Position numbers and translations under genes: made by a program. This document shows, piece by piece, positions 25,936 through 27,635 of a DNA stretch of 64,000 bases. How positions within the stretch are numbered: the stretch's first letter is position 1; each line of letters begins with the position of its first letter. The DNA is from an uncultured Chthonomonadaceae bacterium (GTDB taxonomy: Bacteria > Armatimonadota > Chthonomonadetes > Chthonomonadales > Chthonomonadaceae). Below the pieces are notes generated by a model. It had not been told where the DNA came from, did not search any database, and saw nothing but the letters and a program-made list of their open reading frames with translations. Location: NCBI GenBank assembly GCA_963817895.1, contig CAWFQB010000011.1, forward strand, positions 32,001-96,000, in the 5' to 3' direction.

Positions 25936-26039
25936 AGGAGAGGAGTCCTTCCGATAGCATTGCGCCACGCCGGGAGTTTGTACCCTCAACCCTGGCCCTT
26001 GTATCTTATAAGTGTGCTACCCTAATGGTGGTAGTACTG

Positions 26040-26183
26040 CCGCAACAGGATAGATCGTCGGCCCTTGGGTCGCATTGCAGACCGTGGAGAAGCCCGGATC
26101 GTCCTGTTGCTTCCCGACCAGCCCGTACAGTTGCCGGGGCTATCCAAGCCCGTATCTTGCAAGGCAGGGCCATGTCAGGAAAA
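26040..26183 (+). ncRNA. Putative IS110 bridge RNA (target- and donor-binding loops)
   Basis: Stem gcaacagga/tcctgttgc enclosing target guides tcggccctt and ggagaag; second stem enclosing donor guides acagttgc and tgcaag; 5' end uncertain. Confidence 0.8.
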
Positions 26184-26201
26184 CCTTACAAGGAGCCGAA
26201 T

Positions 26202-27149
26202 ATGTCTGCTGCGGACGTGTTTGTCGGTATTGATGTTAGCAAAGCCCATTTAGATGTTGCCATTCCTGCCGCGACGTTGGCCTTTCGCGTGAGCAATGCG
26301 GAGAGCGGGATTGCCGACTTGATTGCCCGCCTGTCTCCGCTTTCACCTACCTTGATTGTTCTGGAAGCAACAGGCGGCTTGGAAGTGCCTGCGGCCACGG
26401 CATTAGCCTTAGCCGGTTTGCCTGTTGCCGTCGTCAACCCGCGTCGCGCTCGTGACTTTGCCCGGGCCACCGGCCAACAAGCCAAGACCGACCCGCTGGA
26501 TGCGAAGGGGTTGGCGCACTTTGCGCAAGCCGTGCGCCCCACCCCGCGCCCCTTGCCGGATGCGCAGGCGCAGGAACTGTCGGCCTTGTTAGCGCGGCGC
26601 AAGCAGCTTGTCGAGATGCTCACGATGGAGCAGAACCGTTTGCATAGCGCGCCTGCCTGCTTGCACACCGGGTTGAACAAGCACATCGCCTACTTGAAAA
26701 CCGAACTGGCACAAGCCGACGACGATCTGCATACCCATCTTAAGAGCAGTCCCGTCTGGCAAGCCGCGGATGAGGTACTGCAAAGTGTGCCGGGTATAGG
26801 CAAAACCGTCTCGCTGACCTTGTTGGCCGAACTGCCCGAACTCGGACACCTCAATCGCCAGCAGATTGCCGCCCTCGTGGGGGTGGCTCCGTTCAACAGC
26901 GACAGCGGCAAGCGACGCGGGGTCCGCACCATCTTCGGCGGGCGGGCCAGAGTACGGGCGGCCTTGTATATGGCGGCTCTGGTAGCGACCCGGCATAACC
27001 CGCGCATCCGCGATTTTTATGAGCGCCTGCTCAAAGCGGGCAAGGATAAGAAGGTCGCTCTAGTGGCCTGTATGCGCAAATTGCTCACCATCCTCAACGC
27101 GATGCTCAAGCAGCAAAAAAAGTGGAACTTTTCTGCGTCCGAGGCTTGA
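26202..27149 (+). CDS. IS110 DEDD recombinase/transposase
   Basis: GIDVSK, LEATG, KTDPLDA, SVPGIG, DSG catalytic Ser and ACMRKLL. Confidence 0.95.
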
Positions 27150-27635
27150 CTTTTAAGACAGTTGCTTCTCCCTGATGCCCTCTCTGCGTTCGGAGGGAGA
27201 AGGGAGCGAAGGCGGAAGATGAGCGCGTTAATTACAAACTTTATGAACCTGTTCATCTTTCATTTCACAGGCAAAACTACCACACTCACTCCCTTCTCCC
27301 TGTCCGCGCAGCGGACGAATCAGGGAGAAGGGCCATCCATTGAGGGTACAAACTCCCGGTTCCACTGCGGCTGTAATGTAAAGCAGGCAAAGTTTACGCC
27401 GTTTCGGTTCTTACCTGCGCCAAGACTATGTTTTGTGTTGCCGTCCAGAACGCGCCACAACCGCATCACGAATATTCAGCAAGCCGATAGCGAAGCATAT
27501 TCGTTATCGGCTTGCTTTTGTCCGCGCATTTCTAATGCGCGGCCTTCTTACGGCCTCGTTGGAGTTGAGGTATAATTAAGATGTATGGAAGAACCCGATC
27601 AGGAATGAAGCAATATCATAACAGGAGAGGAAATC

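Follow-up and report, generated by a model that had tools for sequence, protein, structure and literature searches.

Among insertion sequences, RNA guidance has been demonstrated for IS621 and ISEc21 (IS621: Durrant 2024, PMC11208160). As described in two studies of the E. coli element (Durrant 2024; Hiraizumi 2024, PMC11208158), IS621 specifies in its left end a 177-nt bridge RNA made of a 5′ stem-loop, a target loop and a donor loop, recombines at a CT core with a DEDD plus serine enzyme and handshake bases, carries a promoter across its joined ends and inserts into a repeat, the enterobacterial REP. Its natural right target guide has 4 nt; longer natural right guides were also reported, and longer guides improved specificity (PMC11208160). 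The related ISCro4/IS622 system (Perry 2025, 10.1101/2025.05.14.653916; PDB 9t56) is likewise described with a 14-nt target and donor around CT and with handshake guides; activity in human cells was shown for IS622, and 18 of 72 orthologs gave product in a human-cell screen. REP targeting by IS110 elements has long been known: ISPpu9, ISPpu10, ISRm19 and ISPa11 enter a fixed point in a dispersed intergenic palindrome, and the targets of such elements are often convergent pairs with a 2-bp CT repeat (Tobes and Pareja 2006, PMC1525189). A different kind of dispersed intergenic repeat, BoxC, PIT or TMECO, is built from two arms, one of pyrimidines and one of purines, and a third purine tract, linked by CCG (Holder 2015, PMC4666352); the same work reported no association of the E. 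coli motif with mobile elements, and did not support the triplex in duplex DNA or in vivo.

We analysed a window, that is, the whole stretch of 64,000 nucleotides, and found in it what is very probably an autonomous IS110-group, IS621-like insertion sequence that would be RNA-guided to a BoxC/PIT-like repeat of its host. Of these IS621 features, a predicted left-end RNA with the three parts, the CT core, the DEDD plus serine enzyme, the handshake bases and a repeat as target recur at this locus, the repeat being BoxC-like in place of REP; a promoter across the joined ends is predicted. The 14-nt CT-centred target and donor of ISCro4/IS622, the fixed insertion point, 2-bp CT repeat and often convergent targets of the REP-targeting elements, and the architecture and intergenic dispersal of BoxC recur as well. 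The REP-targeting elements differ in using another repeat family, and ISPa11 is of IS1111 type with a downstream RNA. The parts of the locus are as follows.

25978–25999, + strand: left half of the split BoxC/PIT-like repeat, with pyrimidine tail, left target (25991–25997) and CT core (25998–25999), from unbroken paralogs
26000–26201, + strand: left non-coding end of the element, beginning with the right donor TGTAT, from paralogs and relatives' junctions
26202–27149, + strand: open IS110 recombinase ORF, 315 aa, with D11, E55, D97, D100 and S235 and wedge residues Y256, M257 and L260
27158–27166, + strand: left donor ACAGTTG and CT core, forming the right end of the element, from relatives' junctions
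27167–27206, + strand: right half of the split repeat, with the remaining hairpin and the right target (27167–27171), from unbroken paralogs
27286–27346, − strand: second, inverted repeat copy, empty, with two mismatches to left guide positions 2–3

The ends were fixed at 26000–27166 (1,167 bp counting one core) because the joined flanks recur unbroken elsewhere in the host genome: intact repeat copies matched them at 87% over 151 nt on contig C4 and at 86% over 118 nt on contig C6, and unbroken empty-site paralogs lie at C4:195457, C6:186612, C14:653177 and other places. An earlier note on this DNA had called 25970–27175 an IS110 element; its identification stands, on the domain matches given below, while its extent does not. 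It had also placed the insertion at CTT, a triplet common to both junctions. Among relatives, any of T, C, A or G follows CT at the right end, whereas the left end opens with TGTAT in every parsed locus but one (AGTAT there), and the core is therefore CT, at 25998–25999 and 27165–27166. Both CTT and TT were ruled out as core by these junctions together with the IS621 bridge RNA, in which the left target guide is followed by the same CCU-UG-GGU step (supplement of PMC11208160). Insertion occurred at this 2-nt core with no longer duplication, as read from the empty paralogs and from the CT common to relatives. The non-coding left end measures 202 nt and the right end extends 17 nt past the stop codon, core included, which is the layout of the IS110 group; in the IS1111 group the long non-coding end lies downstream of the ORF.

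The recombinase ORF is open over its whole length, as the earlier note had read it. Its product matches PF01548 and PF02371 (a DEDD RuvC-like domain plus Transposase_20) and NF033542 of NCBIfam (244 bits, cut-off 140). Its only relatives of solved structure are ISCro4, the best match although distant in sequence (E 5.4e-39), and IS621 (E 2.5e-37), to which it is about one third identical by manual count on the structure-search alignment. The published catalytic set of IS621 (D11, E60, D102, D105 and S241; PMC11208158) maps by alignment onto D11, E55, D97, D100 and S235, five of five present, and the core contacts and hydrophobic wedge described in the same report map to A56, G58 and N79 and to Y256, M257 and L260. 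At least 7,998 protein relatives were found at E ≤ 1e-50 among 8,000 candidates scored. Within those 8,000, the nearest other database clusters are 90%, 76% and 67% identical, so the proposal of a candidate new ortholog holds at the sequence level; the element is intact but an ordinary member of the IS110 group, not new in kind. One cluster representative, P0001, equals the window recombinase except for D97N, at a catalytic position, and is possibly a dead variant or a sequencing error.

The left end encodes a predicted bridge RNA of IS621 type, whose fold has a stem-loop at the 5′ end and then the target and donor loops, with a probable length of about 160 nt, shorter than in IS621. Its parts and those of the putative promoter are listed here.

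26002–26007, + strand: −10-like hexamer TATCTT, of a promoter that would be completed only in the circle
26014–26037, + strand: predicted 5′ stem-loop (−11.5 kcal/mol for 26014–26040)
26042–26110, + strand: target-binding loop, with outer stem and inner hairpin (26068–26083), from the fold and consensus fold
26057–26065, + strand: left target guide, 9 nt, ending in CU, in the register of IS621
26086–26092, + strand: right target guide of 7 nt, fully complementary to core and right flank
26093–26094, + strand: target-loop handshake bases; C26093 can pair with donor position 7 (G)
26120–26172, + strand: donor-binding loop, with outer stem GCCC/GGGC and inner hairpin, from the fold and consensus fold
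26127–26134, + strand: left donor guide, matching 27158–27165 at 8/8 positions
26154–26163, + strand: probable right donor guide, split into AU and GCAAG by a 3-nt bulge, by analogy with IS621
26164–26165, + strand: donor-loop handshake bases; G26164 can pair with target position 7 (C)
27146–27151, + strand: −35-like hexamer TTGACT, overlapping the stop codon

Every motif quoted in the earlier note was found in place: gcaacagga at 26042, tcctgttgc at 26102, tcggccctt at 26058, ggagaag at 26086, acagttgc at 26127 and 27158, tgcaag at 26158, TTGACT at 27146 and TATCTT at 26002. Their reading needed some correction. A left target guide is indeed present, one base to the left of the proposed 26058–26066, T26066-G26067 being the linker that follows this guide in the IS621 bridge RNA. 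The left donor guide was confirmed, whereas in place of tgcaag (26158–26163) the right donor guide is more likely the split pair 26154–26155 and 26159–26163, with a 3-nt instead of a 2-nt bulge, a difference from IS621. The right target guide was correctly placed; its natural 7 nt compare with 4 in IS621. The likeness of the circle junction to the IS621 donor, itself quoted correctly, also held, with 12 of 14 positions in common. Joining the ends leaves a spacer of 17 nt between TTGACT and TATCTT (15 nt from the right end with its core and 2 nt from the left end), as had been claimed; this length is read from the sequence and the promoter function is predicted. Both promoter-like motifs and the same spacing of 17 were conserved in 22/22 guide sets with both ends parsed, in a parser that allowed 15–19.

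Right target guide and left donor guide are both fully matched at the occupied site; the 9-nt left target guide makes six Watson-Crick pairs, one G-U wobble and two mismatches. In the 7.5-Mb genome the four guide words follow one another in this order at a single place, the element itself, and none of 100,000 shuffles of the left end contained all four, for words chosen from this same element. The fold of 26020–26200 alone is not unusually stable (z −1.07), and in a single-sequence fold the two target guides are partly base-paired to one another; a consensus fold of 22 relatives gave the two-loop shape, with compensatory change in 16 of 23 pairs. An Rfam scan of 24000–29000 returned no RNA family, only one sub-threshold chance match, and a covariance model recovered only this element in its own genome (150 of 2022 candidates scored; the element belongs to the training set).

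Comparing guides with flanks across orthologs is fairer than the shuffle test, because the words counted in the shuffles come from the element itself. Of 49 loci at ≥40% identity (five below 40% were dropped), 30 were parsed at the right end and guides by fixed scaffold anchors, yielding 19 distinct guide sets, and 19 were left unparsed. The flanks differ widely among these sets. In 15 of the 19, all five bases of the right target guide outside the core matched the element's own flank, with a mean over the sets of 4.76 of 5 against 2.08 when permuted. The left donor guide matched 7/7 in 18 of 19 (mean 6.95 of 7 against 6.08), and the left target guide reached 5.09 of 7 against 4.05 in the 17 sets for which a left flank was available. 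None of 100,000 permutations did as well in any of the three comparisons, values that overstate independence and significance because the relatives share ancestry. In an enlarged set (75 loci, some fetched twice) the right target guide was perfect in 18/23 and the left donor guide in 22/23; among the five imperfect right target guides, L054 looks like a real poor match and L080 like a parser error.

The donor-loop handshake base was complementary to target position 7 in 24/25 guide sets, against 15.8 expected. The target-loop base is an invariant C facing donor G in all 19 sets. The parser demands CT and AG, so its sets do not bear on the core. The guide words are short (6–8 nt) and the right guide is the repeat's own right arm, so that one might take the matches for chance or captured repeat remnants, with targeting determined by the protein. 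But guides change together with flanks across relatives, and guidance by RNA is established in IS621 (PMC11208160) and ISEc21, and we consider this explanation extremely improbable. The guides are real and, as judged from sequence, read the donor junction and a family of palindromic repeats in the host.

By analogy with IS621, the element would leave as a circle whose joined ends create a sigma-70-type promoter, TTGACT-17-TATCTT, and this junction promoter would drive the roughly 160-nt bridge RNA together with the recombinase. A recombinase tetramer would then pair both DNAs, through the target loop with its 9-nt left and 7-nt right guides and through the donor loop. Cleavage beside CT would proceed through phosphoserine links, the handshake bases driving strand exchange. 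With guides tuned to the double-T subfamily of the repeat, the host would offer about 13 intergenic landing sites.

The target repeat has a tail and an arm of pyrimidines and a second arm of purines; the element lies inside one copy, just downstream of a PEP-CTERM gene. We call it BoxC-like instead of BoxC because the strict TMECO consensus (Holder 2015) has no match in the host genome. Under a relaxed pattern there are 53 copies; the arm holds a single T in 35 of them and two T in the other 18, and several double-T copies are arranged as inverted pairs. In the targeted subfamily the arms are one base longer than in TMECO and the loop has about 20–25 nt. Double-T hairpins as such number 121 in the genome, 18 of them with a CCCTCA tail (our own pattern), and most are not targets of these guides.

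Scoring the genome for left guide positions 2–7, core and right guide left 14 sites that are free of hard mismatches and contain one wobble at most, of which 11 are whole repeats, two are truncated repeats and one is an unrelated sequence. Thirteen of these 14 best sites thus fall within the repeat family, in line with the earlier note's claim that the guides target a REP-like palindrome, and 32 further sites carry one mismatch. The bridge RNA is thus tuned to the double-T subfamily. The occupied site is one mismatch worse than the 14 best, all of which are empty, with a T in its left flank where 13 of the 14 have C; the extra mismatch was either tolerated at entry or mutated later.

Only one copy was detected by blastn and tblastn in the 7.48-Mb assembly, which is 81% complete, and this leaves present activity conjectural. 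An intact-looking but silent element, stranded after one old insertion, its flank drifted from the guide and no longer moving in this host, is a reading to which we give tentative, minor weight. It would suit the single copy beside 14 free good sites, the T for C exchange in the occupied flank and the existence of a database protein differing only by D97N, and by contrast an IS5-type neighbour has 13 near-identical copies. Yet nothing is broken in the ORF, in any guide, in the first handshake base of either loop or in the two promoter halves; excision of IS621 is reported to be naturally inefficient, so low copy number is expected, and a recent arrival would fit equally well, as a search of two genomes of the genus with this query did not recover the element.

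The left arm of the predicted 11-bp stem takes in both core and right target, and the hairpin is complete at 11 of the 14 best sites. The same element might thus need the repeat fold, hairpin or intrastrand triplex, as a second target determinant, with a precedent in the stem-loop gate of ISPpu10 (10.64898/2026.03.19.712850). Three relatives (L031, L042 and L049) also sit in C-rich palindromes and fall on two or more separate branches; for L030 the guide would fit, but flanks are lacking. On a quick tree of 41 proteins, a palindrome-target label assigned by eye required three changes, at least two of them forced by well-supported branches. On the other hand, base pairing alone explains the site list, and the triplex was not supported in duplex DNA or in vivo in Holder 2015 (PMC4666352). 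Moreover, the ISPpu10 stem-loop stands 5′ of the left target, while the stem here is 3′, includes core and right target and would sequester the latter. Most relatives with the same scaffold occupy non-palindromic or coding sites, and the enzyme clade therefore needs no hairpin. Because of the position of the stem relative to ISPpu10 and of these relatives, we regard a structural gate as unlikely and retain guidance by the bridge RNA as the preferred account.

A left junction inside the repeat was found by pattern search in one of 401 phylum genomes, the host genome itself; phylum searches around G413 and G414 returned 3/331 and 5/331 genomes, and viral contigs contained three loci, one of them close. 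Three DNA contig sets from sequencing runs held scattered pieces of relatives and no junction-bridging contig, and are uninformative either way. The nearest relative with DNA, L002 (67–68% identity), shares the left guide and differs at three positions of the right guide, in keeping with the right flank of L002 itself. Its aim fits the tail of single-T repeats, as judged from the half of the target that could be checked, the left end being missing: the region L002:1271–1500 holds the whole bridge RNA core and no left-end TGTAT upstream, and the left end seems replaced. Other relatives (L017–L021, L035–L039 and L041) aim at short tandem CTCCGTG/CTCTGTG repeats; in several of these the left guide matches poorly while the right guide holds, which recalls the half-match insertion reported in the literature. 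A shifted left-guide register shared by BoxC-targeting elements was considered and rejected, as IS621 has the same two-base linker and so does L082, at an unrelated target.

Several other features surround the element. Two similar ORFs, 24931–25935 and 31663–32634, have a PEP-CTERM-like tail (the first matches TIGR02595); both are followed by the same repeat, with 91% identity over their 3′ 100 nt, and the repeat copy near 32690 is truncated, yet a perfect guide match. An IS5-family element (DDE_Tnp_4; about 29837–30907 of the window), one of 13 near-identical genome copies, appears to split a gene for a TPR protein whose parts are the ORFs 31028–31534 and 27885–29705. The interval 27636–27900 holds a 69-aa ORF with no Pfam match and then a short, early-stopping frame that begins like a PIN-domain protein, possibly a decayed toxin-antitoxin pair.

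Part of this picture is already contained in published data. The 11-base donor word occurs 713 times in file 5 and at least 337 times in file 4 of the Durrant 2024 supplement (PMC11208160), and the counts for BoxC-type words in file 5 are 143 and 165. The exact 11-base target had no match in the parts of that supplement that were searched, which make up part of it only. That published data lack BoxC targeting was considered and rejected, since the target list of the same work has rows that are plainly such repeats. A literature search, with subscription papers and bioRxiv supplements outside its scope, found no paper discussing IS110 elements with BoxC or triplex.

The element thus adds one more candidate for ortholog screens, compact at 315 aa, about one third identical to IS621 and with a natural 7-nt right target guide, in which target, donor and handshake bases are all assigned; as 18 of 72 screened orthologs gave product, its usefulness cannot be assumed. 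It also gives a name, BoxC-like repeat, to an IS110 target, a link present in published target lists. A broader proposal, which we consider improbable, is that bridge recombinases were several times independently re-aimed at BoxC/PIT-like triplex-prone palindromes, in different registers, with the repeat fold acting as a structural gate around a cut site in the stem; in L002, the right-guide changes would shift the aim from hairpin arm to tail. If this were true, BoxC-like repeats would be safe landing pads, and this could explain part of the local variability reported around BoxC.
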